From the NCBI GenBank assembly GCA_016214005.1, contig JACRPK010000006.1, positions 17,719 through 81,718 on the forward strand: a stretch of DNA of 64,000 nucleotides. The letters run 5' to 3'. Made by a program: the position numbers and the translations under genes. Shown here one piece after another: positions 1-18,849 of this stretch. This stretch comes from Candidatus Wolfebacteria bacterium (lineage in GTDB: Bacteria; Patescibacteriota; Minisyncoccia; UBA6257; UBA9933). The number at the start of each line of letters is the position of its first letter. Position 1 is the first letter of the stretch. The notes beneath the pieces are model-generated. The model did no database searches, was not told the origin of the DNA, and saw only the letters and a list, made by a program, of their open reading frames with translations.

Positions 1-212
1 ATTTTTGTTTTGCCGACGCCGGATTTTCCGATGATATAAAAATGGCGGCGGCGGTCTTTTCTTTTAATGCCGAAAATAAATCTTTTGGCTTCAAATTCAG
101 ATTCATAATTGGTGCGGCCGAAAAAAGAAACTTCTTTCGGATCGATTTGCCCGTAAATCGGCAAATCAGGCGGCGGCGGAGCGGATTTTATTATTTTAAC
201 TTTATCATCCAT
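1..212 (-). CDS. P-loop NTPase, 5' part only (gene continues off the left edge); HerA/VirB4/DUF87-like Walker A context
   Basis: Reverse strand reads MDDKVKIIKSAPPPPDLPIYGQIDPKEV...FGIKRKDRRRHFYIIGKSGVGKTK. The motif RRRHFYIIGKSGVGKT is a Walker A in the arrangement seen in HerA/VirB4-type ATPases. Start codon is CAT at 210-212. Confidence 0.45.
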   Translation of the reverse strand, partial: MDDKVKIIKSAPPPPDLPIYGQIDPKEVSFFGRTNYESEFEAKRFIFGIKRKDRRRHFYIIGKSGVGKTK

Positions 213-227
213 TATTTTTTAGCTAGA

Positions 228-818
228 TTATTTTTTAGTGATGATTTTTTCTTCATTGGCCTTGTTTTCTTCTAAAATTTTTTCGATATCTTTTGCAATT
301 TCAATTTTTTTAGAGAGAAGTTCTTCAAGCGCTTTGTGATATAGCCCGATGATTTTTTTCATTTCGTCAACGGGTAAAACAAGATCAGCTTCGTGGGCAA
401 GCTTGTTTCTTATTTTGTGCGCCTGCCAAAGGCCGTTAAGATTTTCCATTTCATATTCATTTAAAGATTTCAGCCGTTCGCCCATGTCTTCGCCCGGGTG
501 GTCATAGGCTATTAAAAGTTCATCAATGATGCTGTCGGCTTCAATAATCGCCAGCCGGTAATCGCGTTCGTCGCCGGATTTGATTTTTTCCAGAAGATTT
601 TTCCATTTTTTTGAAGAGACTTCTTTTTGTTTAATGATTTTTCTGTATTTGCCTTCGCTTACCTGCATGGTTTTGATGTAGTCAAGAGTTTCCGAGGGAG
701 TAAGTTTATAGCGAAGAGGTAAAGATTTTATCCAAAGCCAAACAATAGCGGCAATTAAGCCGATTATTGAAATAATAAGAAAAATTTTAACAACAGCGAT
801 AATGGTGTAGATAAGCAT
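228..818 (-). CDS. hypothetical membrane-anchored protein (N-terminal TM, coiled-coil-rich)
   Basis: 196-aa ORF with N-terminal hydrophobic helix IIAVVKIFLIISIIGLIAAIVWLW. No recognisable catalytic motif. Confidence 0.5.
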   Translation of the reverse strand: MLIYTIIAVVKIFLIISIIGLIAAIVWLWIKSLPLRYKLTPSETLDYIKTMQVSEGKYRKIIKQKEVSSKKWKNLLEKIKSGDERDYRLAIIEADSIIDELLIAYDHPGEDMGERLKSLNEYEMENLNGLWQAHKIRNKLAHEADLVLPVDEMKKIIGLYHKALEELLSKKIEIAKDIEKILEENKANEEKIITKK

Positions 819-870
819 TATTGGCTAAATTATAGTATTTTAAAGTTAAAAATCAAATTTATCCTCCCCA

Positions 871-931
871 ATTTTCGCCATTAACTTTTTTATTTTCGTG
901 AGTATAATACAGTGTAGAAACCTTGAAAAAT
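871..931 (+). promoter_or_regulatory. promoter cassette copy A (TTAACT 881-886, 16 nt, TATAAT 903-908, then GTAGAAACCTTGAAAAATA)
   Basis: Member of an 8-copy repeat family with near-consensus sigma70 -35/-10 and a conserved downstream box. Confidence 0.6.
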
Positions 932-992
932 AAAAATCTAGTCAATTTTTATTTTGACTAATTAACAAAGACTGGAAAGGAGAAGGTGAAAT

Positions 993-1097
993 ATGATAGG
1001 TCCTGAGGACTGGGACGACACTGCCTCAAAAGAGCAGGGGAACGATGGCGAGGATAGCGCCGATTCCAGTAGCAATTCCGATGGCTCTGACAGATAG
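993..1097 (+). CDS. small acidic peptide, 34 aa (MIGPEDWDDTASKEQGNDGEDSADSSSNSDGSDR); candidate precursor peptide
   Basis: ATG 8 nt after GGAGAAGGTGA. Followed by rho-independent terminator. Shares a DW motif with the peptides at 4399 and 6193. Confidence 0.4.
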   Translation: MIGPEDWDDTASKEQGNDGEDSADSSSNSDGSDR

Positions 1098-1146
1098 AGC
1101 CCCGCGCCATAATCCGCTTTCTCAAAAGGAAAGCGGATTTATATTT
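1098..1146 (+). terminator. rho-independent terminator (aatccgctttc...gaaagcggatt + T-run)
   Basis: Perfect 11-bp stem with 6-nt loop followed by TTTATATTTTT. Confidence 0.6.
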
Positions 1147-1156
1147 TTGGAACTTA

Positions 1157-2434
1157 ATGATATTATTTTTAAATATGGCTTTTTATAATAAACAATTCCA
1201 ATCATTTCAATTGAAGAATGGTTTGAATATCATTACTCGCCAAGATAATAATTCGGATATAGCGACATTATCATTTCGAATTAAGGCAGGCTCGCGATAT
1301 GAAAAAGAAAATGAGCTTGGTTATGCCCATCTTTTAGAACATATGCTTTTGAAAGGAACAAAAAATTTTCCTTCTCCTTTTGAAATTGGATATGCCGTTG
1401 ACAGGGCGGGGGCTTATTTAAATGCTTCTACTGGGCAGGAGTTGTCCAGCGTTTATATCCAAGTTGCCAAAGAAAAATGGCAAGAAATGTTTAAATTGCT
1501 TTGTGATATAATTTCAAACCCGATTTTTCAAAAAGAAATTTTTGAAAACGAGAAAAAAGTTATTTTTCAGGAAATCAAAAAAACGAATGATAATCCTAAT
1601 AAATATCTGTGGATCAAAACAATTAAAAATATTTTTAAAAATCATCCGCTTTCTCATCATCCGCTTGGTGATGAAGAAATTATCAAAAAAGCGGTCGTTG
1701 AAAATTTAATAGATTATCGGGAAAGATTATTTATTCCAAATAATATGGTTTTGATTGCCAATGGCGCGATTGATAATGAAGAATTGATAAGAATAACCGA
1801 ACAAGAATTTTCTGTTCAAGATAATATTCAACAAAAAAGCGGCCAGTTCGATTATTCTGTTCCTCAAATAAATAAAGGGGAAGGTTTCGAATATTTTAAT
1901 AGCAGTCAATCTTATTTTAATTTTAATTTTGTTTCCGCCAGGGCTGATTTAAAAGATTATCTGGCGCTTCAATTAATCTCTATTTTTTTGGGTTCTCTTA
2001 AAACATCAATTTTATATCAAGAGTTAAGGCAAAAAATGGGGTTAGTTTATAATGTTAACGCTTATAATACCGGCTATCAGGATGCAAATTTATTTTATAT
2101 TGAAACTTCCAGCAATTATCCGGACAAAGTTATCCCCATAGTAATTGAAAAATTGTTAAATTTTGAAAAATATTTTTCAGAGAGCCTTCTAAAAGAATAT
2201 CAAGAACAATATGTAAATTCTTTAATCCGTAAATTAAGCGATCCATTCAATGAAATAAAGTTTTTGTCAGAATATTGGTTTCTCTATAATGGCATTAATC
2301 AGCTTTCGGATTTAATCAATATTATAAATTCAATAAAATATGAAGATTTATTTAGGATTAAAAATCAATATTTGAACGAAAATAATCTGTTTATTATGAA
2401 AATCGGCAAAGATAATCCGCAAATCCCCGCATAA
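1157..2434 (+). CDS. M16-family (insulinase/pitrilysin-like) zinc metallopeptidase, 425 aa
   Basis: HxxEH zinc motif (HLLEHMLLKGT) near the N-terminus. Length is typical of an M16 subunit. Its stop codon TAA (2432-2434) lies inside promoter cassette B. Confidence 0.7.
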   Translation: MILFLNMAFYNKQFQSFQLKNGLNIITRQDNNSDIATLSFRIKAGSRYEKENELGYAHLLEHMLLKGTKNFPSPFEIGYAVDRAGAYLNASTGQELSSVYIQVAKEKWQEMFKLLCDIISNPIFQKEIFENEKKVIFQEIKKTNDNPNKYLWIKTIKNIFKNHPLSHHPLGDEEIIKKAVVENLIDYRERLFIPNNMVLIANGAIDNEELIRITEQEFSVQDNIQQKSGQFDYSVPQINKGEGFEYFNSSQSYFNFNFVSARADLKDYLALQLISIFLGSLKTSILYQELRQKMGLVYNVNAYNTGYQDANLFYIETSSNYPDKVIPIVIEKLLNFEKYFSESLLKEYQEQYVNSLIRKLSDPFNEIKFLSEYWFLYNGINQLSDLINIINSIKYEDLFRIKNQYLNENNLFIMKIGKDNPQIPA

Positions 2435-2506
2435 AACCTCGCTAATTCCCCCCATTGACTTTTTTGTTTTCGTGAGTATAATACAGGGTAGAAACTTTGA
2501 AAATAA
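2423..2506 (+). promoter_or_regulatory. promoter cassette copy B (ATCCCCGCATAAAACCTCGCTAATTCCCCCC + TTGACT 2455-2460, 16 nt, TATAAT 2477-2482 + TAGAAACTTTGAAAATA)
   Basis: Repeat family member including the conserved 5' extension. Confidence 0.6.
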
Positions 2507-2612
2507 TCAGAGGAAAATCTCTGTTTTTATATATGGCGAAATATCTAAATAAAAACGTGGCTAATTTTTATTTGGTTTTGATTAACTTATAGCTGGGAAG
2601 GAGGATGCGAAT

Positions 2613-2714
2613 ATGGGCGGTAAAGGCGGTTCGGGCGGTCATGGCGGTGGCAATGCTGGTTCTGGCGGGCAAAACGGTCAGGGTGGCATTCGCGGCGGTG
2701 GCAGAGGCCGATAA
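2613..2714 (+). CDS. small Gly-rich peptide, 33 aa (MGGKGGSGGHGGGNAGSGGQNGQGGIRGGGRGR); candidate precursor peptide
   Basis: ATG 8 nt after GGAGG. Leader is conserved with copy A (GGAG..G.GAATATG). Followed by terminator hairpin ccccgatgtgaac...gtttacatcgggg. Confidence 0.35.
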   Translation: MGGKGGSGGHGGGNAGSGGQNGQGGIRGGGRGR

Positions 2715-2716
2715 TT

Positions 2717-2762
2717 CGACCCCGATGTGAACAAATCAATGTTTACATCGGGGATTTTTTTA
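2717..2762 (+). terminator. rho-independent terminator
   Basis: ccccgatgtgaacaaatcaatgtttacatcgggg followed by a T-run. Confidence 0.6.
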
Positions 2763-2779
2763 TTTATACTTTATAAAAT

Positions 2780-3424
2780 ATGATAAAAATTCCTTTTTAT
2801 GAAAATTCGAAAGACGATACTCATTGTTTTCAGGCTTGCTTGAAATCAATATTGAAATTTTATTTTCCTAAAAAAAATTATAGTTTTAAATATTTAGACA
2901 GAGCGACGGCTCACAAAAAAAATAAATGGACATGGAATAGCGCCGTATTTTTATTTTTAGAAAAATTTGGTTTTGAAATTATAAATATTGAAGATTTTGA
3001 TTATGCAAAATTCGCGCGGCTCGGAGAGCAATACCTTAAGAGAATATGGATAGATGAAGTATTTCAGACTCAAAAAAAATTTTCGGATTTAAAAAATGAA
3101 CAGAAATTGGCTAAAAAGTTAATTAAAAATAAAAAAATTAAATTATTAAAACGGCCGGCAACGATAAGTGATATTAAAAAATTATTTATAAAAAATTATA
3201 TTATTTTAGTGAACATTAATCCTTTTATTTTAAATAATAAAAAAGGTTATTCATCTCATATTGTGATTATAACCGATATGAATAAATCAAAAATAACTTT
3301 TCATGATTCCGGTTTGCCTCCGCAAAAAAATAGGAAAGCCCCCATTAAACTTTTCTTAAAAGCGATGGAATATCCTTATAAAGAAGACGCTAGTATTATT
3401 GCATTAAGATTGTTTTTTCTGTAA
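2780..3424 (+). CDS. putative papain-fold cysteine peptidase (C39-like), 214 aa
   Basis: N-terminal DDTHCFQACLKSILKFYF (Cys in a C39-like context). Later GYSSHIVIITDMN (His) and FHDSG (Asp). The order Cys...His...Asp fits C39-like leader peptidases. Confidence 0.4.
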   Translation: MIKIPFYENSKDDTHCFQACLKSILKFYFPKKNYSFKYLDRATAHKKNKWTWNSAVFLFLEKFGFEIINIEDFDYAKFARLGEQYLKRIWIDEVFQTQKKFSDLKNEQKLAKKLIKNKKIKLLKRPATISDIKKLFIKNYIILVNINPFILNNKKGYSSHIVIITDMNKSKITFHDSGLPPQKNRKAPIKLFLKAMEYPYKEDASIIALRLFFL

Positions 3425-3436
3425 GTTTGTGCTTTA

Positions 3437-3490
3437 TCTTTAAAATATTTTTTGAATTAAATATATTCAATTTGCCCGCCCTTTTTTAAT
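3437..3490 (+). repeat. ~50 bp repeat AAATATTTTTTGAATTAAATATATT..TTTGCCCGCCCTTTTTTAATGAT (second copy 17484..17535)
   Basis: Near-identical string at both loci. At the second locus it contains the stop codon of the kinase-like gene. Confidence 0.5.
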
Positions 3491-3513
3491 GATCAAATTT
3501 AATGATCAAAAAT

Positions 3514-3672
3514 TACAGCGTCAAGAAAATATGTTTTTCAGAATGTCTCGGAGGCGCAAAAAGCTTGGTCTTTTGCGAAGCAAAAGTTTTTGCGCCGAGA
3601 GCCAAGCTCTTGATTTTTCGCTGGAAAAAAATCAAAGAGCGGTTCTGAAAAACATATTTTCTTGACGCTGTA
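3514..3672. mobile_element. MITE-like structured repeat copy 1 (30-bp perfect terminal inverted repeats TACAGCGTCAAGAAAATATGTTTTTCAGAA)
   Basis: Three copies in the window (also 41576..41711 and 55953..56112), each with internal nested inverted repeats. ORFs called inside it are spurious. Confidence 0.6.
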
Positions 3673-3699
3673 ATCCCCAAAAAGTTATCCACAGCCTGT

Positions 3700-3785
3700 T
3701 CTCTCCCCATTGACTTTTTCATTTTCCCAAGTATAATGTAGGATAGAAACTTTGAAAAATACCAGTTCTAAGGTTAGAAACTGGT
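3700..3785 (+). promoter_or_regulatory. promoter cassette copy C (TTGACT 3710-3715, 17 nt, TATAAT 3733-3738) plus leader hairpin CCAGTTCTAAGGTTAGAAACTGG
   Basis: Repeat family member. The hairpin-type leader is shared with copies E and H. Confidence 0.6.
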
Positions 3786-3820
3786 TAAAAAAAGAAAGAA
3801 AAGAAAGAGGGGATAGGAAA

Positions 3821-4399
3821 ATGAAATTTTCAACGCGCCATATTATTTTACGACCAATGGAGGAGAAAGATTTATCGATTTTACATCAATGGCGTAACGA
3901 TGGCGATTTTATTCAATATTGTTCCGTTCGTCGTTATCCCGTCGAATACGAAGAATTTATTAATGAGTTGCAAAAGGATTTTAAAAATGATAGGCATCGT
4001 CAATTTATCATAGAATTACAAAAAGAGCGTAAGGTTATCGGTACAACTTATTCTTACAATTTTAACTCAATAGATGGTTATGCGTTTATAACTATTTATC
4101 TCGAGGAAAGGTACCGCTATCGTGGATATGGAGCAGAAGCAGTCGCGCTATTTTTAAGATTTCTTTTTGAATCATATCCCCTCTATAAAATTTATATGGA
4201 AGTGTATGACTATAATCAGCACGCGCTTTCAATTTTGCAAAATGCTAGTTTTGAAGAAGAGGGAAGATTTAAGGAACACCGTTTTTTTCGTGAAGAACGA
4301 TATGATTTAATCAGATTTGCATTTTTTCAGAAATCATTAACAAAAGTTTTTGAATTTTTAGAGAATATAAAATTTTATCGGAAAGGAGGTGATGTCTAA
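3821..4399 (+). CDS. GNAT-family N-acetyltransferase, 192 aa
   Basis: MKFSTRHIILRPMEEKDLSILHQWRND... with acetyl-CoA binding motif region YRGYGAEAV. RBS GGATAGGAAAATG. Confidence 0.7.
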   Translation: MKFSTRHIILRPMEEKDLSILHQWRNDGDFIQYCSVRRYPVEYEEFINELQKDFKNDRHRQFIIELQKERKVIGTTYSYNFNSIDGYAFITIYLEERYRYRGYGAEAVALFLRFLFESYPLYKIYMEVYDYNQHALSILQNASFEEEGRFKEHRFFREERYDLIRFAFFQKSLTKVFEFLENIKFYRKGGDV

Positions 4400-4599
4400 T
4401 GGGTTGGTTTAGAGATAAGGGAAAAGAAGGCATATTTCTTGAGGGGAAATCCAGTCGAGAGCATACCCATAGAGATGGTTCTCATGGGCGCGATGTAGAA
4501 GCATATCGCAACACATATAATGAGGGTGAACAAGTCCACAGCGAGAAAGCGGATGACTGGGGAAAGGATCACGAAAGTTCTGGCGATAGCGGAAAATAA
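4399..4599 (+). CDS. small hydrophilic peptide, 66 aa (…EKADDWGKDHESSGDSGK); candidate precursor peptide
   Basis: TAATG stop/start overlap with the GNAT gene. GGAGGTGA sits 9 nt upstream. Homologous to the N-terminal part of the 6193 protein (HTxRD…DWGxxKD). Confidence 0.4.
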   Translation: MGWFRDKGKEGIFLEGKSSREHTHRDGSHGRDVEAYRNTYNEGEQVHSEKADDWGKDHESSGDSGK

Positions 4600-4616
4600 A
4601 GTGGCACTTAACTAAA

Positions 4617-4662
4617 TAGGGCAGAGAGCAAATACTCTCCGCCCTATATTTTATTTTGAGGT
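4617..4662 (+). terminator. rho-independent terminator (tagggcagagag…ctctccgcccta + T-run)
   Basis: Inverted repeat followed by TATTTTATTTT. Confidence 0.55.
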
Positions 4663-4697
4663 TTCATTTTAAGTAAGTTTAAATTATAATTTTTAAT

Positions 4698-5975
4698 ATG
4701 CGCGATACAAAACAAATATTAAAAAAACCATTATTCTATCTTGTTAATTTACCTCAAAAAACGGATAAGATTTATTTCGATATTTTTTATCGCAGGGGAA
4801 ACATATTCGATCCTCCAATGGCAATGGGCATGGCGCATATGCTTGAACATTATATGGTTGGGCATCTGAAACAAAAATACATTCGCGATCATTTTATGGT
4901 TGGGGGAAGCATAAGTAATAGCTTCACAAATTTTTATCTTATTTCCAGCACACGTCAATTATTGTTAGATTTGCAGATTTTTTTAAGCGGAATTTTTAGA
5001 CCAGAATTTTCAGATAAAACAATTTTTGAATATGAGCTTAAAGCAGTTCGGAATGAAATTGCCGAAAAAAAACACGACATTGAATCGCAGATATTTGATG
5101 TTATTTCAAAAAAAATATTTTTAGGCGATTGTCCGTATCGCGCGGCAAATAATGAAAAAAATAAATATTTTGAAAAATTTACTCTTCATGACATACAGCA
5201 ATTTTACTTAAAAGATTTTTCAACCATAGAACCTTTGTTTGTTATAGGCGGTTATAATATAAACGATCGTTTGCTTAAAGAAGTTATTATTCTTATTCGC
5301 GAATTTTTACCGCAACGATTGCACTTATTTAATCATTTCAATTTTCCCAAATGCATTCCTCGCAGTTTTAACGTTGAAGCGATAAAAAACAAAAACATTA
5401 AAAGTGGGGCATATTCAGTGTTCACTTTTCCCGGTTTTTCAATGCAAGATCATGATTTTCGCTTGAGAATGGGGTTGCATGTGTTGTTAAAAATACTCAC
5501 AGGAAGTTCGCCATTCGGTTTGTCCATAGAAACCCGCAAATTAGGAATCTATAATATTTCTTATAAAAATATTATGAGACCGAGGATAGGGATTGTTTCA
5601 TTATTTTCTTTTACTGAAAATAATCAAATTTTCGCTTTGGCAAAACTAATTAAAGATCATATCGATTTGTTAAAAAAAGATCTTATAAACGAACAATATA
5701 TTTCAAAAATTGTTAACGACGCAAAAAATAAGCAAAAGGCGATTTGGGAAAATAACGAGAATAAATATAATTGGATCATAGATGATTTTAAATATTTAAA
5801 GTTTAATATTAACATCACGGCGGAAAAGAAAATATTGGATTCAATAACGCCTCAGTTTTTGCGGGAAATTGCAAATACAATTTTTAATTGGAGGAAATTC
5901 AATATGTTTGTTATATATAATGATATAAATAATCCACAGATAGGAAAAATAAAAAAAATTTTTCAAAATAATTAA
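4698..5975 (+). CDS. M16-family zinc metallopeptidase paralog, 425 aa
   Basis: HxxEH motif (MAHMLEHYMVGHL). Same length as 1157..2434. Confidence 0.65.
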   Translation: MRDTKQILKKPLFYLVNLPQKTDKIYFDIFYRRGNIFDPPMAMGMAHMLEHYMVGHLKQKYIRDHFMVGGSISNSFTNFYLISSTRQLLLDLQIFLSGIFRPEFSDKTIFEYELKAVRNEIAEKKHDIESQIFDVISKKIFLGDCPYRAANNEKNKYFEKFTLHDIQQFYLKDFSTIEPLFVIGGYNINDRLLKEVIILIREFLPQRLHLFNHFNFPKCIPRSFNVEAIKNKNIKSGAYSVFTFPGFSMQDHDFRLRMGLHVLLKILTGSSPFGLSIETRKLGIYNISYKNIMRPRIGIVSLFSFTENNQIFALAKLIKDHIDLLKKDLINEQYISKIVNDAKNKQKAIWENNENKYNWIIDDFKYLKFNINITAEKKILDSITPQFLREIANTIFNWRKFNMFVIYNDINNPQIGKIKKIFQNN

Positions 5976-5986
5976 CTTTGATCCGA

Positions 5987-6070
5987 ATCCCCGCATAAAA
6001 CCTCGCTAATTTCGCCATTGACTTTTTCATTTTCCCAAGTATAATATAGTGTAGAAACTTTGAAAAATAA
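5987..6070 (+). promoter_or_regulatory. promoter cassette copy D (TTGACT 6018-6023, 16 nt, TATAAT 6040-6045)
   Basis: Repeat family member. Followed by type-II leader ACGCATCCCTGCCTGCCGGCAGGCAGGTTTGTGAATGTGTTAATAAGAAAACCGG. Confidence 0.6.
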
Positions 6071-6077
6071 CGCATCC

Positions 6078-6097
6078 CTGCCTGCCGGCAGGCAGGT
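6078..6097. repeat. 20-bp perfect palindrome CCTGCCTGCCGGCAGGCAGG (copy 1 of 4)
   Basis: Identical palindrome at 11152..11171, 41542..41561 and 55922-ish (core CCTGCCGGCAGG). Confidence 0.6.
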
Positions 6098-6136
6098 TTG
6101 TGAATGTGTTAATAAGAAAACCGGACTTCATATTTT

Positions 6137-6154
6137 GCTATCACTAATGATAGC
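6137..6154. promoter_or_regulatory. 18-bp palindromic operator-like site GCTATCACTAATGATAGC (copy 1 of 5)
   Basis: Same palindrome (GCTATCAC yRr GTGATAGC) at 25155, 42593, 43143 and 43461. Confidence 0.45.
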
Positions 6155-6192
6155 GTGGTCAAAAATAAGTAAAGAAAGAGAGGAATTGAATT

Positions 6193-6576
6193 ATGGGTGG
6201 ATATTCTGAAAAAGATGCGGCAAAAGATACTAATTCTAGTATGAAAGAAACAAAAGATGCTTGGCATACTGCAAGAGATGATGCTGCTGAAGAAGGCGAT
6301 TGGGGTGTGCCAAAAGACAGACATGGTGAAGGATGTTTTATAGCGACTGCGGCTTATGGAAGCTATTTCGAGCCTCACGTAAAAATTCTCAGGGATTTTA
6401 GAGATATTTTTCTTGTGGAGAGTATTTTGGGAAGATTATTCATAAAAATTTATTATTGTATCAGTCCGTTTATTTCCGGTATTATTGAAAAAAGTGAAAT
6501 TTTAAAGAAAATTATGCGAATAATTCTTTCGCCGATAGCATTGTTGATTGAACATATATTTATAAAGCGCTTTTAA
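6193..6576 (+). CDS. 127-aa protein: N-terminal hydrophilic DW-motif peptide region fused to a C-terminal GCFIATAAYGS…LRDFRD…hydrophobic module
   Basis: N-terminal 47 aa are homologous to the 4399 peptide. C-terminus carries CFIATAAYGS followed by LRDFRD and a hydrophobic stretch. I recall this as a conserved C-terminal module of secreted/anchored proteins but cannot name the family with certainty. Confidence 0.5.
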   Translation: MGGYSEKDAAKDTNSSMKETKDAWHTARDDAAEEGDWGVPKDRHGEGCFIATAAYGSYFEPHVKILRDFRDIFLVESILGRLFIKIYYCISPFISGIIEKSEILKKIMRIILSPIALLIEHIFIKRF

Positions 6577-6610
6577 GCGCTTTTTATTTTGGCAAAATTA
6601 TTCATAATAT

Positions 6611-6895
6611 GTGATAATAATAAATATGGGAAAAGAAAATCAAAAAAATCCTGCCTGCGTTATTTTGTGGCAAGATGCGGCATATTCATATGAGAAAGAA
6701 TTTCCGAAAGAATTTCCATTGCCACAATTAACAGCTGGTTTTATTATTTCCGCTAATGATGAAGACGATTTTATAAATATTGCCATGAATGTTGAATATG
6801 ATGAAAAAACCGGTAAATTATATCCGCTCGATGGATTTTTAATACCAAAAAAATCGAAAATTGAATTCAGGAATATGGGATTTTTTAATGAATAA
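6611..6895 (+). CDS. hypothetical protein, 94 aa
   Basis: ORF with ATG start. No recognisable motif. Confidence 0.35.
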   Translation: MIIINMGKENQKNPACVILWQDAAYSYEKEFPKEFPLPQLTAGFIISANDEDDFINIAMNVEYDEKTGKLYPLDGFLIPKKSKIEFRNMGFFNE

Positions 6896-6900
6896 AATTT

Positions 6901-7161
6901 ATGGATAAAAAGAGAATTAAAGTTTATTGGGCAGACGCTGTATTTTATAAAAAGAGTAAAAATATTGGCGATGGTCTGACTAAAATGATAACTATTGGGG
7001 AATTATTCATTGAAAATGAAAAATTTATTGTGATAAAATATCCAAAATCAATTAAAGAAAATAAGCCATTATTATTTCAATTATTTAAGAGATTCTTATC
7101 AAAAAAACCCACTTACTTATTTATTCCCCGCGGAATGATAAGAAACATTATTTTATATTAA
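6901..7161 (+). CDS. hypothetical protein, 86 aa
   Basis: ORF with ATG start. No recognisable motif. Confidence 0.35.
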   Translation: MDKKRIKVYWADAVFYKKSKNIGDGLTKMITIGELFIENEKFIVIKYPKSIKENKPLLFQLFKRFLSKKPTYLFIPRGMIRNIILY

Positions 7162-7164
7162 TAT

Positions 7165-7275
7165 ATCCCCGCATAAAACCTCGCTAATTCCCCCCCCATT
7201 AACTTTTTTGTTTTCGTGAGTATAATACAGTGTAGAAACCTTGAAAAACACCAGTTCTAAGGTTAGAAACTGGTT
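7165..7275 (+). promoter_or_regulatory. promoter cassette copy E (TTAACT 7199-7204, 16 nt, TATAAT 7221-7226) plus hairpin leader
   Basis: Repeat family member. Confidence 0.6.
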
Positions 7276-7310
7276 AAAAAAAGAGAGAAAAGAAAGAGAG
7301 GATAAGGAAA

Positions 7311-8444
7311 ATGGTTGAATCGGCTATTGTTACATCACCGCTTAAAACAATGGTTCCAATCATTAAGGTGGTGGGCGATTTTTGCAATTTAAATTGCAAA
7401 TATTGTTTTTATAATGCCAAGGACCAGATTATCCGCCATGTGATGAGCAATGATTTGCTTGAAAAATTTTTTAGCGAGTATCTAGATCTTTTTTCTGGCA
7501 ATCTTTTTATTATTTGGCATGGAGGAGAGCCTCTTCTCGCAGGACTTCGATATTTCGAACATATTGTTGAACTTGAAAAGAAATATCTCAAAAAAGGCCA
7601 AACGATTAAAAACGCCATTTAAACAAATGCTACATTGGTAAACGATGAGTGGGCGCAATTTTTTAAAGCGCATAATTTTAAAGTTGGCGTAAGTTTAGAC
7701 GGCGGACAAGAAAGTCATAATCTATTTCGCAAAAATCATGGAGGGAAAGGTTCTTTTGATCATGCTATGCGAGGAATTAAAATACTCCGTCGTTATGGAA
7801 TAGAGCCTGGGATTATTCAAACTTTGACTCGCGCCAATATTTCGCGTGTTCAAGAAGATTTCAATTTTTTTGTGAATGTTCTTGGAATCCATGCGTGGGG
7901 AACAAATTTTTATCTTGATCTTGATAATATTAATCAGCTCATGCTGGATCAGAATCTTACCAATTGTCAGCTTGCGGATTTTTTGAGAAAACAAATTGAT
8001 CTTTGGCTTGTTCGAAATGATAGAACTTTACGCATTAGAGAAATAGAAAATTTTATTTCTGGCGTGTTTAATAAAAAAACGCCAAGTTGCGCTTTTAGCG
8101 GATCTTGCAGTAAATATTTTTGTCTTGAATACGATGGCAAAATATATCCATGTGATAGATCTTCTGGCAAGTCAGATCTGTTATTGGGAGATTTCTCCAG
8201 ACAATCGTTGCAAGATGTTTTTAATAGCGTGAGCAAATTAAATTATGATAAGCAGATTAATAATTTGCCATCTGAATGTTCAATTTGTGAATGGCTGAAG
8301 TTTTGCAATAATGGATGCGTTATGAACAGGGAAGGCGGGATTGGCGGTAAATATTATTATTGCGAGATGCGAAAAGAGATTTTTGCTTATCTTAAAGAGA
8401 AAGTTGGCGAATATAATCGATCACTTATAACACAAACCGCCTGA
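7311..8444 (+). CDS. radical SAM / SPASM-domain peptide-modifying enzyme (anSME-like), interrupted by an in-frame TAA at 7620-7622
   Basis: CxxxCxxC (GDFCNLNCKYCFY) at residues 25-32, followed by GGEPLL. C-terminal Cys cluster CSKYFCLEYDGKIYPCD…CSICEWLKFCNNGCV matches SPASM. Both halves are in the same frame. The TAA falls where the conserved Q of the (I/V)QTNGTLL motif is expected (here AI*TNATLVNDEW). Confidence 0.75.
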
Positions 8445-8465
8445 AAAGGCAGAAAGGAGATAGCA

Positions 8466-8633
8466 ATGGATGGTAATATTGCAATAGAGGGAGCTTTCTT
8501 AAGAGCGGAAGAACGGTCAAATAACGATCTGTTAATTGAGACAGATTCAAAACGGCAGGAAGCTGTTTTGGATTTTTGCAAATGGCCAGATTGGAACAAT
8601 GCTCCGGATTTCACAGAGCTGGAGACGCTCTAA
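8466..8633 (+). CDS. small peptide, 55 aa (MDGNIAIEGAFLRAEERSNNDLLIETDSKRQEAVLDFCKWPDWNNAPDFTELETL); candidate rSAM substrate
   Basis: Starts 22 nt after the rSAM stop, with RBS AAAGGAGA. Contains a CKWPDW segment (Lys-Trp adjacent). Followed by a terminator. Confidence 0.4.
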   Translation: MDGNIAIEGAFLRAEERSNNDLLIETDSKRQEAVLDFCKWPDWNNAPDFTELETL

Positions 8634-8639
8634 TATATA

Positions 8640-8692
8640 AATATTCCGACAAAGGCTTATCAAAATTTTTGATAAGCCTTTTTTATTTTAAT
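8640..8692. terminator. bidirectional rho-independent terminator (ggcttatcaaaatttttgataagcc)
   Basis: Perfect inverted repeat flanked by T-runs on both strands, between convergent genes. Confidence 0.55.
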
Positions 8693-9585
8693 ATTCCTTT
8701 TAATTCAGAAATTGAAAAATATACTTTTTCTATATATTCGTTATCAAGCGGTTTATTTTTCTTAATGTAAATATTTATTAATTTTATTAATTCTTCGGTT
8801 TTAACATAGTTTTTTGGTATTTTGGCGTTTAACGTAATATTCTTGCTATTTAAAAATTTTCTGCCCAAGACGCCATTGGGGAAAAGAGAACTTATCGCCG
8901 ATTCTTTAATAAGATTTATGGTATCAAAATCATTCAGATATTTTTTATACAGCAAGGGAAGAAAATATTGTTTTTCAAAACATAGATGTATTGTTTCGTG
9001 CCAAATAATACCCATGGCATGATTTGCGTCATTTAACGGATAGCGAGAAATTTCAAGGCTGATACTTTTATTATCAATACTTGCTCCGCCGCCCGTTTGA
9101 ACGGGTGAAGAAAATAATAAATTAATGTTAATTTTAAATTCAGAAGGAGAAGTATTAAAAATAATGTTCAATATATCAACTATAGATTTTACCAAATGCG
9201 GTTCATTTATTTTGTCGCTTAATTTTTTTTGCCATTGAAGTAGGAGAGGCTCTTCTTTGTTCCAAAGCAAATTAAATTTTTTTTCCAACAAAGAAAAAAT
9301 ATTTTTGAGATTAATAAAATCTTCTTGCGATAATTTTTGTTCTAAAATAATCCAAGGATTTTTTTCGATAAAAAATTGGCGCCCTAAGTATGATTCTCCA
9401 AATGGATATCGTAAGTGGATTTCTTTAAATTCTTTCAGGGAGTTTTCTTCTTCTGGCGAAAATTGCCCGAGTTCTTCTCTCCATAAAATATTGTAATTTT
9501 TTCGGTTGCTAAAATGCCATTCGGAAAGGTTTTGGATAAAAAAATAAAAATTTGCCCATTTTGAAATTATAAATTCAAATTTCAT
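8683..9585 (-). CDS. hypothetical protein with HExxH motif (putative zinc-dependent peptidase-like), 300 aa
   Basis: MGIIWHETIHLCFE contains HETIH. No other recognisable domain. Confidence 0.4.
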   Translation of the reverse strand: MKFEFIISKWANFYFFIQNLSEWHFSNRKNYNILWREELGQFSPEEENSLKEFKEIHLRYPFGESYLGRQFFIEKNPWIILEQKLSQEDFINLKNIFSLLEKKFNLLWNKEEPLLLQWQKKLSDKINEPHLVKSIVDILNIIFNTSPSEFKININLLFSSPVQTGGGASIDNKSISLEISRYPLNDANHAMGIIWHETIHLCFEKQYFLPLLYKKYLNDFDTINLIKESAISSLFPNGVLGRKFLNSKNITLNAKIPKNYVKTEELIKLINIYIKKNKPLDNEYIEKVYFSISELKGILK

Positions 9586-9672
9586 ATTATTTATTTTACT
9601 AAATTTTCTTTATTTTAACCACTCCTTTTCTCATAATTTGTTTCCTACTATTATTTTTTCCCAAATCCTTTC

Positions 9673-9760
9673 GAATCCCCCGCATAAAACCTCGCTAATT
9701 CCCCCCATTAACTTTTTTATTTTCGTGAGTATAATCTAGGTAGAAACTTTGAAAAATAAC
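9673..9760 (+). promoter_or_regulatory. promoter cassette copy F (TTAACT 9708-9713, 16 nt, TATAAT 9730-9735)
   Basis: Repeat family member. The leader is a diverged type-II version. Confidence 0.6.
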
Positions 9761-9864
9761 GCATTCGCGAGGAGTGTGGCAACAACGGATAATTTTATTT
9801 ATTATAGACTATAGATGGAGCAGAATGGTTCTGTTCCGCCAAACACCTTAAAAAGGAGACGACC

Positions 9865-10443
9865 ATGATCCAGACAGTCGAAAGGAGTTCTTGTTCGAGA
9901 GGGTTTGAGCACTTCCATGGCGGAGTTGGAGTTCAGGGGATTCTCAGCGATCTGGTAATTCCCGCAATTCCAGGCGAGTACTACGCCTACTCCTCCGAGT
10001 TCACGAAGGAACGACCGCTGTACGCGCTCATGAAGTGCAAGGCGAACAAGGATCGTCCAATTACCGCCGCGGAAGACCTTGGTCAAGAGGCAAACCTGCT
10101 TTTCCTGTTTGGCAACCAGAACCAGGTTCAGGCCTGCGCGATCAGGACGGCGTACATTTCCGGTCTGCTCGGTGACTCCGTCAATGGTGAGTCATTCGGC
10201 GAGACGTGGATTGCTCCCGCCCGGATTACCGCCGAAGACTTCTACGAGCTTCGTTCGAGGAAAGATGTGACGAAGCTAGTGGAAATTTGCCAGGTGGCGT
10301 GCTCGGAGCGCAGGGCATCCATCGCGCTGGAACCAGGGGTGGTCATTGCTATGATGACTGACTGCGGAAAGTACGGTTTGTTCTTCGTGAGGCGGATCAC
10401 TCCAGCACTGATCCAAATTGATGCTTGCCACATCTTGCTTTAG
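9865..10443 (+). CDS. hypothetical protein, 192 aa, in a compositionally foreign high-GC segment
   Basis: The segment ~9800-10560 is ~55% GC against ~30% in the flanks. It has RBS AAGGAGA and a downstream terminator hairpin ccgccaaggggtatcccttggcgg. Confidence 0.5.
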   Translation: MIQTVERSSCSRGFEHFHGGVGVQGILSDLVIPAIPGEYYAYSSEFTKERPLYALMKCKANKDRPITAAEDLGQEANLLFLFGNQNQVQACAIRTAYISGLLGDSVNGESFGETWIAPARITAEDFYELRSRKDVTKLVEICQVACSERRASIALEPGVVIAMMTDCGKYGLFFVRRITPALIQIDACHILL

Positions 10444-10573
10444 CTCCACACGGCACGCGAGTAGCATCTGCCGCCAAGGGATACCCCTTGGCGGCAGATT
10501 TAATTTTAAAACCAGGTATAAAATAGGCACATCAGGGGATTTATGAATAGCATTAGAACCCACCCCCTTGTAT

Positions 10574-11044
10574 CTATAAAATTTTTCGCCACACTTGCCC
10601 GATATCATCATCCGGTGGTGTTATCTCTCCAGCTCTCTCAAAACCCAATTTGCCATGAAAGCGCCACGACTCACTGTGAGAATTAGGACTATATAAAAGG
10701 ATTTCAGTAAAACCAAGTCTGCGCGCTTCCTCAATTAGTTTTAATTTTAGTGTTTTTCCGATACCTCTTCTTTTATATTTTACCGCAATGACATAAAATT
10801 CAACAGGATTATTAGTTAGCGCATACGGCTTTAAGTAGTTAGCCAATTTTTTAAAACCAACAATTCCTAAAATTTCACTGTTTTCCGTTGCTACAAAAAA
10901 ACCGGAATCTTTCTTCGGAGTTTTTTTAACATATAATTGTAATTCACTTAAAAGCTCCTTAAGAAATTCTGGGTCTGTCCAATACAAAGCAAAAATTTCT
11001 TCCACCGCTTTTTGGTCGCTTTCCTGAAATTCTCGGATGATCAT
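10574..11044 (-). CDS. GNAT-family N-acetyltransferase, 156 aa
   Basis: RRGIGKTL acetyl-CoA binding motif and characteristic GNAT fold order. Confidence 0.7.
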   Translation of the reverse strand: MIIREFQESDQKAVEEIFALYWTDPEFLKELLSELQLYVKKTPKKDSGFFVATENSEILGIVGFKKLANYLKPYALTNNPVEFYVIAVKYKRRGIGKTLKLKLIEEARRLGFTEILLYSPNSHSESWRFHGKLGFERAGEITPPDDDIGQVWRKIL

Positions 11045-11087
11045 TTATATATACTAGCAAAATTTTGTGGGTTAGGAAACAAGCGCT

Positions 11088-11171
11088 GTCCATTGACTTT
11101 TTCATTTTCCCGAGTATAATATAGGGTAGAAACTTTGAAAAATAACGCATCCCTGCCTGCCGGCAGGCAGG
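11088..11171 (+). promoter_or_regulatory. promoter cassette copy G (TTGACT 11093-11098, 16 nt, TATAAT 11115-11120) with type-II leader containing the 20-bp palindrome
   Basis: Repeat family member. Confidence 0.6.
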
Positions 11172-11272
11172 TTTGTGAATGTGTTAATAAGAAAACCGGT
11201 ACTACTATTGATAGTAGTGCCAAAGATATTTCAGACAAAGAAAGAAAAGAAAAAGAAAGAGAGGATGGGAAA

Positions 11273-12253
11273 ATGAAAGAAGCAATTCTTATTTTAACTA
11301 ATTCCGAAGATGGTAAACATACGGATGTTGTGCTTGAGAAACTTCAACAGGCTGATCAGAATGTTTTTCGTTTTGATTCAGATCGTTTTGCAAATGGTGA
11401 GATTATAATTGATTTTGAGAATAACCATCGGAGATGCGAATTTGCGATGTATTCTCATGATCAAGTGATAAATTCAAGAAATATTAAAAGTGTTTGGTAT
11501 CGTAGGCCTAATCATTTTAACTTGCAAATTCAAGATCTCGTTCAGCGTAATTATGCCGAACAAGAGATTAAAAATTTGCTAGATGGATTATGGACGATGG
11601 TGCCGGATATTTTTTGGTTAAGCAATCCGAAAAGCCTTGAACAAGCGCGGAAAAAACTTTTTCAATTAAAACTTGCTCGCGAGCTTGGATTCTTAATACC
11701 AGAAACAATAGTTACCAATGACCCAAATCGTGTTCATGAATTTTTTAAGACCTACAATGGTAAGATAGTTTTTAAAGCTTTTTATCATGAATTTCTAAAT
11801 TATGGAGATCGCGCATTTAATATTCCGACTACGCTTATAACAGAAAAACACCTAGAAAAACTTGAGCTTGTCAAGAAAATGCCATGTCTATTTCAAGAAT
11901 TTATCGATAAAAAATACGAGCTAAGAATAACGGTTGTAGGACAAAAAATTTTTCCAGTCAAAATTTATTCTCAAGAAAATTCTCAAACAACTGTTGATTG
12001 GAGAAATCCGGAGTTTATTAATAAACTCCGTTATGAAGTTGTTAGTATCCCAGAAGCGCTTGTTAAAACCTGTTTAACTATGTTGAATGAGCTTGAGCTT
12101 TCGTTTGGAGCTTTTGATTTTGTAGTTGATAAAATAGGGGAAATCTTTTTTCTTGAAATTAACCCTAATGGACAATGGTATTGGATGGAAAGTCAAACAA
12201 ATGTGCCAATTTCTGATGCCATTGTTGATATTCTAAGTTTAGAAAGGAGGTGA
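11273..12253 (+). CDS. ATP-grasp ligase (RimK/MdnC-like; candidate peptide macrocyclase), 326 aa
   Basis: N-terminal MKEAILILTNSEDGKHTDVV and central/C-terminal ATP-grasp regions (ELRITVVGQKIF…FDFVVDKIGEIFFLEINPNGQW). The called ORF begins inside the leader, so the start is set at 11273. Confidence 0.6.
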   Translation: MKEAILILTNSEDGKHTDVVLEKLQQADQNVFRFDSDRFANGEIIIDFENNHRRCEFAMYSHDQVINSRNIKSVWYRRPNHFNLQIQDLVQRNYAEQEIKNLLDGLWTMVPDIFWLSNPKSLEQARKKLFQLKLARELGFLIPETIVTNDPNRVHEFFKTYNGKIVFKAFYHEFLNYGDRAFNIPTTLITEKHLEKLELVKKMPCLFQEFIDKKYELRITVVGQKIFPVKIYSQENSQTTVDWRNPEFINKLRYEVVSIPEALVKTCLTMLNELELSFGAFDFVVDKIGEIFFLEINPNGQWYWMESQTNVPISDAIVDILSLERR

Positions 12254-12259
12254 TAGATT

Positions 12260-12370
12260 ATGAGTCCTGAGATTTTTGCGGCAATTTGCGCCGTGGAATC
12301 ATCAGAACAACTCTCTGAAGTTACGGCGAGTTGGACTGGCCAGGGGTCTTTCAAACATCAAGACGACTAG
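12260..12370 (+). CDS. small peptide, 36 aa (MSPEIFAAICAVESSEQLSEVTASWTGQGSFKHQDD); candidate ATP-grasp substrate
   Basis: AAAGGAGGTGA overlaps the ATP-grasp stop and the ATG is 7 nt downstream. Ser/Thr and C-terminal Asp residues present. Terminator follows. Confidence 0.4.
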   Translation: MSPEIFAAICAVESSEQLSEVTASWTGQGSFKHQDD

Positions 12371-12392
12371 GCAGATTAGTCGGGGACCCAAA

Positions 12393-12432
12393 ATAGGGAG
12401 TGGCGATAAGCTGCTCCCTATATTTATTTTTA
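12393..12432 (+). terminator. rho-independent terminator (atagggagtggcgataagctgctccctat + T-run)
   Basis: Inverted repeat followed by ATTTATTTTT. Confidence 0.5.
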
Positions 12433-12457
12433 ATATAATATTCATTAAAATATAAAT

Positions 12458-13165
12458 ATGTTAAATATACATCTTGAAAATTCAAAACAAACTAAATTTA
12501 TTTTAATAGGAGAAATTCATGGCATAAAGGAAAATATTGAGATATTAAAATCAATAATACAATCATATTTAAAAAGTAAAAATAATAATAAATTAATTTT
12601 AGCATTGGAATGGCCATATCAATTAACAGATGAAATTAATAAATATATAGATAATAATCTGACACAATTAAAATGGCAGAAATGGGATTTTATTAAAAAT
12701 AATGATGGAAGAATATCTAAAGAACATATACTTTTTTTAAAGTGGCTTAAAAATATTAATCGCAATCTCTTAAAAAATAAAAAAATTAAAATTCAATGTT
12801 TTGATGTAATTGAAAAAAAATGGAATAAAAGGGATAAAAAAATGGCGAATATATTACTCAAGTTGAAAAAGAGAAAAAATATTCAATTAGTTGCGATTAT
12901 GGGGAATTTTCATGCTTCAAAAATGGTATTTTATTTTGGTGGCAACAAATATATTCCTCTTGGATCATATTTTCCTCTTGATACAACAATATCTATTAAA
13001 TTAGAATATTGTTCTGGTTATTTTTATAATGAATATTCTAAAAAAATTCCTTCTCACAAAAATATAAATACAATTAAAAAATCTAAATTGCAAAAGAATA
13101 AAAAATCTGAATATGATTATATTTTTTTAATAAAAAAAGCTCATTCAACAAAGCCGTTATATTAA
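12458..13165 (+). CDS. hypothetical protein, extremely AT-rich; possible Tiki/TraB/ChaN-like GxxH…E…GxxH metalloprotein
   Basis: IGEIHG … ALEWP … MGNFHA in that order resembles the Tiki/TraB/ChaN motif layout. Local GC is about 20%. Confidence 0.3.
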   Translation: MLNIHLENSKQTKFILIGEIHGIKENIEILKSIIQSYLKSKNNNKLILALEWPYQLTDEINKYIDNNLTQLKWQKWDFIKNNDGRISKEHILFLKWLKNINRNLLKNKKIKIQCFDVIEKKWNKRDKKMANILLKLKKRKNIQLVAIMGNFHASKMVFYFGGNKYIPLGSYFPLDTTISIKLEYCSGYFYNEYSKKIPSHKNINTIKKSKLQKNKKSEYDYIFLIKKAHSTKPLY

Positions 13166-13179
13166 TAAATTTAAAGTTA

Positions 13180-13716: not shown

Positions 13717-13788
13717 CTTTTTTATTTTCCCGAGTATAATATAAAATAGAAACTTTGAAAAATACCAGTTCTAAGGTTAGAAACTGGT
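13705..13788 (+). promoter_or_regulatory. promoter cassette copy H (TTGACT 13713-13718, 16 nt, TATAAT 13735-13740) plus hairpin leader
   Basis: Repeat family member. Confidence 0.6.
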
Positions 13789-13824
13789 AAAAAAAAGAAA
13801 GAAAAAGAAAGAGAGGATAAGGAA

Positions 13825-15134: not shown

Positions 15135-15199
15135 ATTTAACTTGTTATGCTAAAATCAGCATTTAGCTCTTTTAAAATAAAATAAGGAGAATATCGGCA

Positions 15200-16399: not shown

Positions 16400-16405
16400 A
16401 TATTG

Positions 16406-16498: not shown

Positions 16499-16551
16499 AA
16501 ATGGGATTTGGGAGAATGATTTAAACAATTCTCCCTTTTTTTATTTCATTA

Positions 16552-17508: not shown

Positions 17509-17535
17509 ATATATTTTGCCCGCCCTTTTTTAATG

Positions 17536-17610: not shown

Positions 17611-17623
17611 TTTGAATTAATTT

Positions 17624-18738: not shown

Positions 18739-18786
18739 AAACAAGGCAATCAGAGCCTTGTTTTTTTGTTTGTCCCTTGTTTAACT

Positions 18787-18848: not shown

Positions 18849-18849
18849 T

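Follow-up and report, generated by a model that had tools for sequence, protein, structure and literature searches.

The first 17 kb of a 64-kb window (the whole stretch of DNA analysed here, from contig JACRPK010000006.1 of Candidatus Wolfebacteria, Patescibacteria or candidate phyla radiation, CPR) form an island of small open reading frames (ORFs) and peptide-maturase-type genes, of which we describe the left part, positions 993-8444. Three of its ORFs had originally been predicted to encode one family of Asp/Trp-motif peptides, namely p993 (34 aa, with an EDWDD segment), p4399 (66 aa) and the N-terminal part of a 127-aa product starting at position 6193 (the 6193 protein), in which the peptide-like region is fused to a C-terminal module that begins GCFIATAAYGS. 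All three ORFs were found where they had been placed and with the same sequences, and each has a Shine-Dalgarno sequence, a repeated promoter upstream and a terminator-like hairpin downstream (Table 1). The GC content is about 0.31-0.35 near 993-6576, in a window that is AT-rich.

The small-peptide and peptide-maturase-type genes of the island are driven by one repeated promoter, a sigma-70-type element (CCATTRACTTTTTYRTTTTCSYRAGTATAAT, 31-80 nt) present in eight near-identical copies, all on the + strand, at 878, 2452, 3707, 6015, 7196, 9705, 11090 and 13710. Every transcription unit of the island starts with one of them; there are zero further copies in the 64 kb and zero are expected by chance. 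The units under these promoters include two M16 peptidases, a C39-like peptidase, two GNAT acetyltransferases, an ATP-grasp peptide maturase of the MvdC/D type, two radical SAM/SPASM enzymes, an APH-like kinase and several small ORFs.

Table 1. Features in the left part of the island, in coordinates of the window.
Feature	Position	Strand	Remarks
Promoter copy 1 of 8	878..908	+	TTAACT-N16-TATAAT inside the repeated element
p993	993..1097	+	34-aa acidic ORF (EDWDD); doubtful as a gene
Hairpin after p993	1111..1139	+	terminator-like
M16 peptidase (M16a)	1157..2434	+	425 aa, HLLEH motif; Pfam Peptidase_M16 and M16_C
Promoter copy 2	2452..2482	+	
p2613	2613..2714	+	33-aa Gly-rich ORF MGGKGGSGGHGGGNAGSGGQNGQGGIRGGGRGR; strong Shine-Dalgarno sequence
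Terminator after p2613	2720-2753	+	14-bp stem
C39-like cysteine peptidase	2780..3424	+	weak DUF3335 match
Promoter copy 3	3707..3737	+	
GNAT acetyltransferase	3821..4399	+	Acetyltransf_3; nearest solved relatives are SpeG spermidine/diamine N-acetyltransferases
p4399	4399..4599	+	66 aa, ends SGDSGK; ATG overlaps the GNAT stop codon (TAATG)
Hairpin after p4399	4617..4646 (approximate)	+	terminator-like; structure, not sequence, conserved in L004
Divergent M16-like peptidase (M16L)	4698..5975	+	425 aa, HMLEH motif
Promoter copy 4	6015..6045	+	
Perfect 20-nt palindrome	6077..6096	.	CCTGCCTGCCGGCAGGCAGG; repeated at 11152-11171
Palindrome	6137..6154	.	GCTATCA-CTAA-TGATAGC; 7-bp arms, 4-nt spacer; hairpin in the 5' untranslated region
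6193 protein, N-terminal module	6193..6333	+	member of the CPR small-protein (DW) family
CFI-box-CTERM domain (NF041770)	6334..6576	+	four predicted helices
Hairpin of the 6193 gene	6564-6583		terminator-like
s94	6626..6895	+	conserved small protein, predicted all-beta; follows GWGVPxDRH-subtype DW genes
s86	6901..7161	+	second conserved small partner protein
Promoter copy 5	7196..7226	+	ahead of the radical SAM/SPASM gene
Radical SAM/SPASM enzyme, anSME/DynA-like	7311..8444	+	one in-frame TAA at 7620-7622

The three peptides do not form one detectable family

The strings that had suggested a common family are literally present, HTHRD in p4399 facing HTARD in the 6193 N terminus and DWGKDH facing DWGVPKDRH, but their similarity does not exceed chance. 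BLASTP between the peptides gave E values of about 10, and Smith-Waterman scores did not differ from those of shuffled sequences for p993 and p4399 (p=0.39), p993 and the 6193 N terminus (p=0.96) or p4399 and the 6193 N terminus (p=0.68), nor did the maximum scores over family members (p=0.18, 0.40 and 0.21). A hidden Markov model (HMM) of the family to which the N-terminal 47 residues of the 6193 protein belong, which we define here as DW, matched only the 6193 ORF (2e-35) among 1387 stop-to-stop segments of the window; p4399 (-0.4 bits) and p993 (1.3 bits) lay within the segment noise, and P0088, the counterpart of p4399 in locus L004, scored 1.8 bits.

Comparison of profiles, which had been proposed as a check, gave no supported alignment of the three peptides. 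With hhalign, the p4399 family and the DW proteins ending in SGK aligned over their last six columns only (sGDSGK), and an HMM of the GWGVP...SGK tails alone left p4399 at -1.6 bits (p=0.37), so that the shared element is just those few tail residues. The positions conserved in the two families are different, W-H-x-A-R-D and G-[WH]-G-V-P in the 6193 family and H-x-H and D-[WY]-G-K-x-H in the p4399 family, and the letters common to the two peptides are not those that are conserved. Neither HTxRD nor DW is a conserved feature of both; what p4399 and the SGK-ended DW proteins have in common is the SGK tail, which the 6193 protein has lost. As far as sequence comparison can tell, the three Asp/Trp peptides are not detectably related and do not constitute one sequence family, and p993 in particular is linked to the other two by no HMM, alignment, tail or GNAT neighbour.

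p4399 is known as a Logan gene call only, which implies that the GenBank record did not annotate it. In L004, which shares the order GNAT, peptide, hairpin and M16-like gene with the window, P0088 is 78.5% identical to p4399 with a dN/dS of 0.125 at a synonymous divergence (pS) of 0.64, and p4399 is more conserved than the genes flanking it at the same locus (GNAT, 58%; M16-like gene, 47%). Three further members of the p4399 family occur in L032, L033 and L051. Judged by these comparisons, p4399 is evidently a real gene under purifying selection whose body is unrelated to that of the DW proteins.

An SGK tail accompanies the GNAT gene

The connection between p4399 and DW that had been proposed holds in a different form, since members of both occupy the same slot directly after an orthologous GNAT gene and have a [DGS]SGK terminus, which is a matter of context and not of homology. 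When metagenome contigs were scanned with a GNAT alignment, 41 loci were obtained, and the ORF directly after the GNAT gene was read in each. This ORF was of the DW type in L026, L036, L040, L041/43, L046, L049/50, L052, L055 and L059, of the p4399 type in L032, L033 and L051 as well as in the window and L004, and of two further types in L028 and L037/39. It ends in [DGS]SGK in about 17 of the 21 distinct readable cases, with SSSK, DSSK and SGGK as tail variants and L035, L029 and L030 as exceptions. The four body types show no mutual similarity (shuffle p >= 0.18), and the chance of the tail given the composition is 0.6-2e-3 per type. The tail is encoded by diverse codons (Ser AGY 12 times and TCN 6 times, all four Gly, both Lys and all three stop codons) and is followed by unrelated DNA, and the codon diversity indicates that selection acts on the peptide; a translated DNA element as the origin of SGK is ruled out on the same ground.

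The DW proteins from GTDB genomes show the same association, as those beside a GNAT gene (L006-L009) end in SGK and those with no GNAT neighbour (L010-L018, L020-L023) have no SGK end. The SGK tail goes with the GNAT gene and the DW body goes with s94 and s86, and these two associations are clearly distinct. In the window it is p4399 that occupies the GNAT slot, lying directly after the GNAT gene and ending in ...GDSGK; the 6193 gene lies 1.8 kb downstream behind its own promoter and its tail is replaced by the CFI box, and p993, which ends in ...SDGSDR, has neither the tail nor the position. What p4399 and the DW family have in common is thus a functional slot and the motif at the end of the protein, with no detectable common ancestry.

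Among solved structures, the GNAT clade comes closest to SpeG spermidine N-acetyltransferases, diamine N-acetyltransferases and AAC(6') enzymes, all of which transfer the acetyl group to a primary amine that terminates an aliphatic chain. M16 peptidases are also found beside the small genes, twice in the window and in L004, L038/L039, L017, L019/L045 and L011, and the linkage between an M16-like gene and an SGK-tailed small protein is kept in L004 and L038/L039. The GNAT and M16 links to small genes are conserved across genomes, and the radical SAM, ATP-grasp and C39-like links are seen in this island only. As far as the searched libraries and literature show, the association of GNAT and SGK is undescribed; it amounts to a testable rule, by which an orthologous GNAT gene is followed by a small SGK-ended protein whatever its body, and points to a specific interaction between enzyme and tail.

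The DW family and its partners s94 and s86

An exhaustive phmmer search with residues 1-47 of the 6193 protein (E <= 1e-3) returned at least 54 cluster representatives, most of them free-standing proteins of 45-77 aa, in agreement with the prediction that this N-terminal part is peptide-like; one representative, the 575-aa repeat protein P0115, was treated as spurious. The small proteins of the family, 45-90 aa long, are hydrophilic and consist of a conserved body, with the consensus Y-(T/S)-E-K-D-A-A-K-D-T-x-x-S-x-K-E-V-x-x-A-W-H-x-A-R-D-D-A-A-x-E-G-G-W-G-V-P-x-D-R-H, and a variable flexible tail. No Pfam or NCBIfam model covers the family. A scan of GTDB with an alignment of a 14-sequence DW subset placed it at 19 loci, nearly all in Patescibacteria, with members in Wolfebacteria, Paceibacterota, Staskawiczbacteria, WWE3, Saccharibacteria and Jorgensenbacteria.

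In the GWGVPxDRH subtype, which includes the window protein, s94 and s86 come next after the DW gene, an order seen in about 20 loci (the window, L002, L003, L005-L010, L019 and at least ten metagenome loci); in L046 and L070 s94 comes next and the contigs end there. This subtype often has a SpeG/RimJ-like GNAT gene directly upstream, whose product is 41-60% identical to that of the window GNAT. P0076 is an apparent fusion of DW, a transmembrane (TM) segment and s94 that runs straight on from ...SDSSGK, where related DW proteins stop, and this continuity suggests read-through of the DW stop codon. As far as the searched libraries and literature show, the DW family and its partners are undescribed, and the analysis thus yields a defined new small-protein family with two conserved partners.

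A second DW subtype (...SGELxERN...) has an amphipathic tail such as GSILYSIFKAVFGKD and is found without s94, s86 or GNAT. In L011 a gene of this subtype adjoins one for an ATP-binding cassette (ABC) exporter of about 600 aa (3924-5729 and 6004-6198), and in L072 a related exporter gene adjoins a gene resembling the fusion of DW with the CFI box (5001-5516 and 5652-7466), a layout that resembles a bacteriocin locus. The DW gene of one Saccharibacteria genome is frameshifted in two independent assemblies (L019/L045, around 6087).

The 6193 protein carries a CFI-box domain

The 6193 protein is identical to HZC33_01130 of Candidatus Wolfebacteria bacterium, annotated as a hypothetical protein. 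Its GCFIATAAYGS-x5-V-x2-LRDFRD segment begins at residue 47, and residues 48-115 match positions 1-68 of the 69 positions of the NCBIfam model NF041770 (CFI_box_CTERM) with 90.3 bits (cutoff 40; E=5.1e-26), so the HMM search that had been suggested names the module CFI-box-CTERM and bears out the view that secreted or surface proteins carry it as a conserved module at their C-terminus. It is hydrophobic, and Pfam has no model for it. C48, F49, I50, A51, T52, A53 and Y55 are invariant in a 53-sequence alignment, an AlphaFold2 model has predicted local distance difference test (pLDDT) values of 78-93 across four helices, and the domain stops 12 residues short of the stop codon. A resemblance to the G|CF autoprocessing site of hedgehog proteins and inteins was discarded, as the features that define such a site are missing and the fold of the CFI box is helical, not Hint-like.

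The 86 CFI homologues have unrelated N-terminal parts (signal peptides; FN3, TPR and Big-like domains), then a poly-Gly linker and C-F-I-A-T-A-A-Y-G, and many of them end in a very hydrophobic helix and an Arg-rich end. At two loci in other phyla the CFI-box ORF evidently closes a large surface protein, which is an S8 peptidase in one case and a 7253-aa PKD/CARDB protein in the other, and in a methanogen the box is almost stand-alone, at 96 aa. No partner gene of the CFI box is conserved over five loci in other phyla; one radical SAM gene adjoins the methanogen copy, without recurrence elsewhere. No paper on the function of the domain was found in literature searches for CFI-box or CFIATAA.

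Five of the 54 aligned DW sequences also match the CFI box, and with the window protein the fusion is found in six (P0001, P0002, P0093, P0103, P0104 and P0105). In the 6193 protein the tail is replaced right after DRHG, and the box starts behind DRHGEG, where relatives continue ...S-D-D-S-G-K. The fusion genes of L003, L005 and L070 go with s94 and s86 (in L070 with s94, where the contig ends), and no GNAT gene was found in their available flank, which is 6 kb on each side in L005 and lies on contigs of less than 2 kb in L003 and L070. The boxes of the 6193 protein and of its CPR relatives P0002 and L005 have no terminal TM segment, the 19-aa hydropathy maximum being 1.68 in the 6193 protein (maxima 1.6-1.7), compared with 2.1-2.3 in P0003 and P0021. 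Both the signal-less 47-aa passenger and the nearly stand-alone occurrence argue for an anchoring role of the CFI box and against a sorting signal that is cleaved off. It also provides a first contextual clue to this domain, which attaches to a signal-less module of cytoplasmic type and occurs almost alone as well.

Other features of the island

The palindrome at 6137-6154, which had been taken for an operator, exists, but its operator reading finds no support. It lies in the 5' untranslated region about 90 nt downstream of the -10 hexamer, is one of 167 palindromes of this quality in the window (46 in shuffles) and has no counterpart ahead of the orthologous genes of L003 and L005. Upstream of it, the 110-nt promoter-plus-leader of the CFI-box gene (6015-6124) is 98% identical to that of the MvdC/D-type ATP-grasp gene (11090-11199; gene at 11273-12253), which suggests co-regulation of the two genes. 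The perfect palindrome CCTGCCTGCCGGCAGGCAGG, the more striking of the two, lies inside the shared 110 nt, and each leader has a different small hairpin beyond the shared part.

p993 has a GC content at third codon positions (GC3) of 0.60, compared with about 0.25 for genes of this genome. It is called as a gene by one pipeline only, no relatives were found, and the L011 orthologue of M16a (39% identical) has no similar ORF upstream; what speaks for it is the promoter, the ribosome-binding site and the terminator. Possible readings of p993 are a partner peptide of M16a, a gene acquired recently or a transcript that codes for no protein. The Gly-rich p2613, which no pipeline called as a gene, lies just upstream of the C39-like peptidase gene and has the appearance of a candidate precursor. 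When the p993 and p2613 units were folded as RNA, the z-scores were -2.6 and -3.5, with most of the predicted stability in the terminator hairpins, and an Rfam scan of window positions 1-20000 returned nothing above noise.

The two M16 proteins of the window are both exactly 425 aa long, both have an HxxEH motif and each is encoded after the gene of a small peptide; together they may make up a heterodimeric peptidase of the M16B type. The in-frame TAA of the radical SAM/SPASM gene splits it where relatives carry the Gln of I-Q-T-N-G, and could be due to a pseudogene, a sequencing error or a polymorphism. Directly after the promoter copy at 9705 there is a sharply bounded GC-rich block (9850-10500; GC 0.55-0.57, flanks 0.31), which holds a 192-aa ORF (9865-10443; GC3 0.66) and overlapping ORFs in other frames; it has no Pfam, NCBIfam or Rfam match and represents a gene of foreign origin or else a structured RNA. 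HExxH-type motifs (HETIH, HEMLH and HELMH) occur in proteins of 240-300 aa encoded near small-protein cassettes in the window (8683-9585, - strand), L028 (1820-2551, - strand) and L011 (8387-9208, + strand), with only a weak SprT-like Pfam hint and no similarity by tblastn. A DUF6624 protein is encoded at 13180-13716 in the window and at 2609-3124 in L072, adjoining the DW::CFI-like gene there, and the two are 40% identical.

Interpretation and alternatives

The best overall explanation, to which we give a probability of roughly 0.6, is that the 6193 protein is made of two modules, a DW body and a CFI box, that an SGK tail is linked to the GNAT gene, and that p4399 is a separate conserved protein. 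The descriptive anatomy within it we regard as highly probable; the mechanism as a whole is a tentative proposal, somewhat short of even odds. In this mechanism the GNAT would recognise the free ...SGK end and acetylate the epsilon-amine of the terminal Lys, a plausible target because its side chain is chemically like the polyamine ends acetylated by SpeG. M16 enzymes act on short unstructured peptides, and the M16 peptidases, possibly as an M16a/M16L heterodimer, would process the short disordered small proteins. The DW body would work with s94 and s86, and the CFI box would make the DW protein a membrane-associated, GNAT-independent variant, with p4399 keeping the role of GNAT partner. The three-step model is favoured by the relatives of the GNAT, the recurrent M16 neighbours and the precedent of acyl-CoA synthetases, in which a GNAT acetylates the Lys of a C-terminal ...GK motif, PX4GK (PMC11619455).

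Put more generally, a dedicated SpeG-like GNAT would recognise ...[D/G/S]SGK as a transferable tail, in a system confined to Patescibacteria in which at least four unrelated scaffolds carry the tail, and DW would exchange this tail for a CFI-box membrane module, a possible but rather doubtful generalization. If true, it would represent a previously undescribed system of protein-tail modification or recognition, and the tail swap would show the CFI box to be a self-sufficient membrane-association domain, not a sorting signal that is cleaved off. Should the tail serve as a handle for modification, small proteins of an uncultivated superphylum would be regulated in a new way. CPR/Patescibacteria have small genomes with many genes that lack annotation; the GenBank record leaves out p4399, and DW is without a Pfam or NCBIfam model.

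Several observations weigh against this interpretation. In L029, L030 and L035 the gene after the GNAT orthologue is of another kind, no M16 peptidase accompanies the p4399-type gene of L033, and the Pro at -6 of PX4GK is absent from the SGK tails. The 6193 protein ends in ...IFIKRF, with no TM helix and basic tail of the kind seen at the terminus of many members, and in the absence of a strongly hydrophobic terminal segment its membrane anchoring is uncertain; its N-terminal 47 residues are hydrophilic, with no hydrophobic leader and, unlike most CFI members, no signal peptide. The model of s94 is of low confidence (pLDDT 61) and has no fold match. The DW and p4399 bodies could share a very distant ancestor that leaves no detectable trace in proteins so short. 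Finally, N-terminal acetylation, a role of the tail as inhibitor or antitoxin, or plain co-regulation would fit the data equally well.

Among the alternatives, the one that survives best, although we consider it unlikely, is a leader/core architecture like that of ribosomally synthesized and post-translationally modified peptides (RiPPs) or bacteriocins, which had been envisaged originally. In this reading DW contributes a long leader of a new kind, comparable to those of NHLP or Nif11 precursors, and the variable C-termini (S/D/G-rich SGK tails, amphipathic tails resembling antimicrobial peptides, Cys-containing tails and the CFI box) would be matured and exported cores, with p4399, p993 and p2613 as further precursors. 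The conserved N-terminus of DW and its hypervariable C-terminus (amphipathic, as in ...GSILYSIFKAVFGKD, or Cys-rich) agree with such an arrangement, as do the ABC exporters beside DW genes in L011 and L072 and the small ORFs with a strong promoter, a Shine-Dalgarno sequence and a terminator-like hairpin ahead of a peptidase gene, which are typical of precursor genes. The island contains two radical SAM/SPASM enzymes, the MvdC/D-type ATP-grasp, M16 and C39-like peptidases and GNATs, and the 98% identical leader is common to the CFI and ATP-grasp genes. However, the CFI box is a folded helical domain of 70 aa that ends large surface proteins elsewhere, the neighbouring radical SAM gene has an in-frame stop, and only s94 and s86, and no maturase, travel with the DW::CFI fusion (L003, L005 and L070). 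Zero matches to known precursor or leader families were obtained in Pfam and NCBIfam, and a literature search on Patescibacteria and RiPPs found nothing relevant. Moreover, the SGK class conserves the extreme C-terminus on unrelated bodies, which is the opposite of a shared leader.

It is also conceivable, but quite improbable, that the GNAT is a toxin and the small protein coupled to it an antidote or regulator: the target of the enzyme would be some amine of the cell, such as a polyamine, an aminoacyl-tRNA or an antibiotic-like compound, and the small protein would plug its active site with the SGK Lys as a pseudo-substrate. The tight coupling with overlapping stop and start codons and the SpeG/AAC(6')-like nature of the GNAT are compatible with this idea, and conservation of the tail alone over unrelated bodies is what one would expect if only the tail contacts the enzyme. 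In known systems, GNAT toxins are of the Acetyltransf_1 type and their ribbon-helix-helix (RHH) or DUF1778 antitoxins are encoded upstream. No DNA-binding domain was detectable with Pfam or NCBIfam in the small proteins, and their bodies have conserved partners of their own (s94/s86 and M16 peptidases) that an antidote would not need.

That the three peptides are a single, very divergent homologous family, with p4399 and p993 as eroded DW paralogues, is very improbable: the slot of p4399 after an orthologous GNAT, the hydrophilic His/Asp/Gly/Lys-rich composition common to all three, the aromatic-Gly...His element shortly ahead of the tail in both DW and p4399 and the S/D/G-rich tail of p993, like those of DW proteins, are set against pairwise p values of 0.18-0.96, HMM scores of at most 2 bits, a profile alignment of the tail only and, for p993, the absence of an SGK tail, a GNAT neighbour or a conserved counterpart and an atypical GC3.

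Comparison with known systems

The acyl-CoA synthetases with PX4GK offer the same pairing of a GNAT with a target Lys in ...(S)GK near the C-terminus (PMC11619455). Here, by contrast, the target Lys would be the C-terminal residue itself, in a small disordered protein, and the GNAT is SpeG/RimJ-like, not Pat-like.

Long-leader RiPPs of the NHLP/Nif11 type and microviridin-type clusters (ATP-grasp and the GNAT MdnD) resemble the present system in having a conserved N-terminal domain with a variable C-terminus, and in RiPP clusters, as here, small peptides are encoded among radical SAM/SPASM, ATP-grasp, GNAT and peptidase genes. The locus differs in having no sequence match to these leader families, no GG cleavage motif and no peptidase-containing ABC transporter (PCAT), and the partners s94, s86 and GNAT are not known maturases of these systems.

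LysW has a C-terminal EDWGE, a zinc ribbon and an adjacent LysX-type ATP-grasp, and Pup ends in ...GGQ/E. Both are, like the proteins described here, small, acidic and largely disordered, with an invariant extreme C-terminus, and their genes adjoin that of the enzyme that acts on this end. The differences are a terminal Lys in place of Glu, Gln or Gly, the absence of an adjacent LysX ATP-grasp or PafA-type ligase, and the absence of a zinc ribbon. Identity with LysW or Pup was rejected for want of their defining features; DWG is internal and as such not conserved, there is no Cys4 motif and the only ATP-grasp is of the MvdC/D type, about 7 kb downstream of the p4399 gene.

As for the CFI-box-CTERM family, the 6193 protein agrees with it in the end-to-end match to the model, the G-C-F-I-A-T-A-A-Y-G-S start and the C-terminal position, which a short junction with Gly precedes. 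In a typical member a signal peptide and a large extracellular passenger (FN3, PKD/CARDB, S8 peptidase or TPR) are joined by a poly-Gly linker to the box, and the protein finishes with a strongly hydrophobic TM segment and an Arg-rich end, whereas the 6193 protein has neither TM segment nor signal peptide and its passenger is a 47-aa hydrophilic module of cytoplasmic appearance. The CFI-box assignment itself corresponds to a known database family; the passenger is unprecedented.

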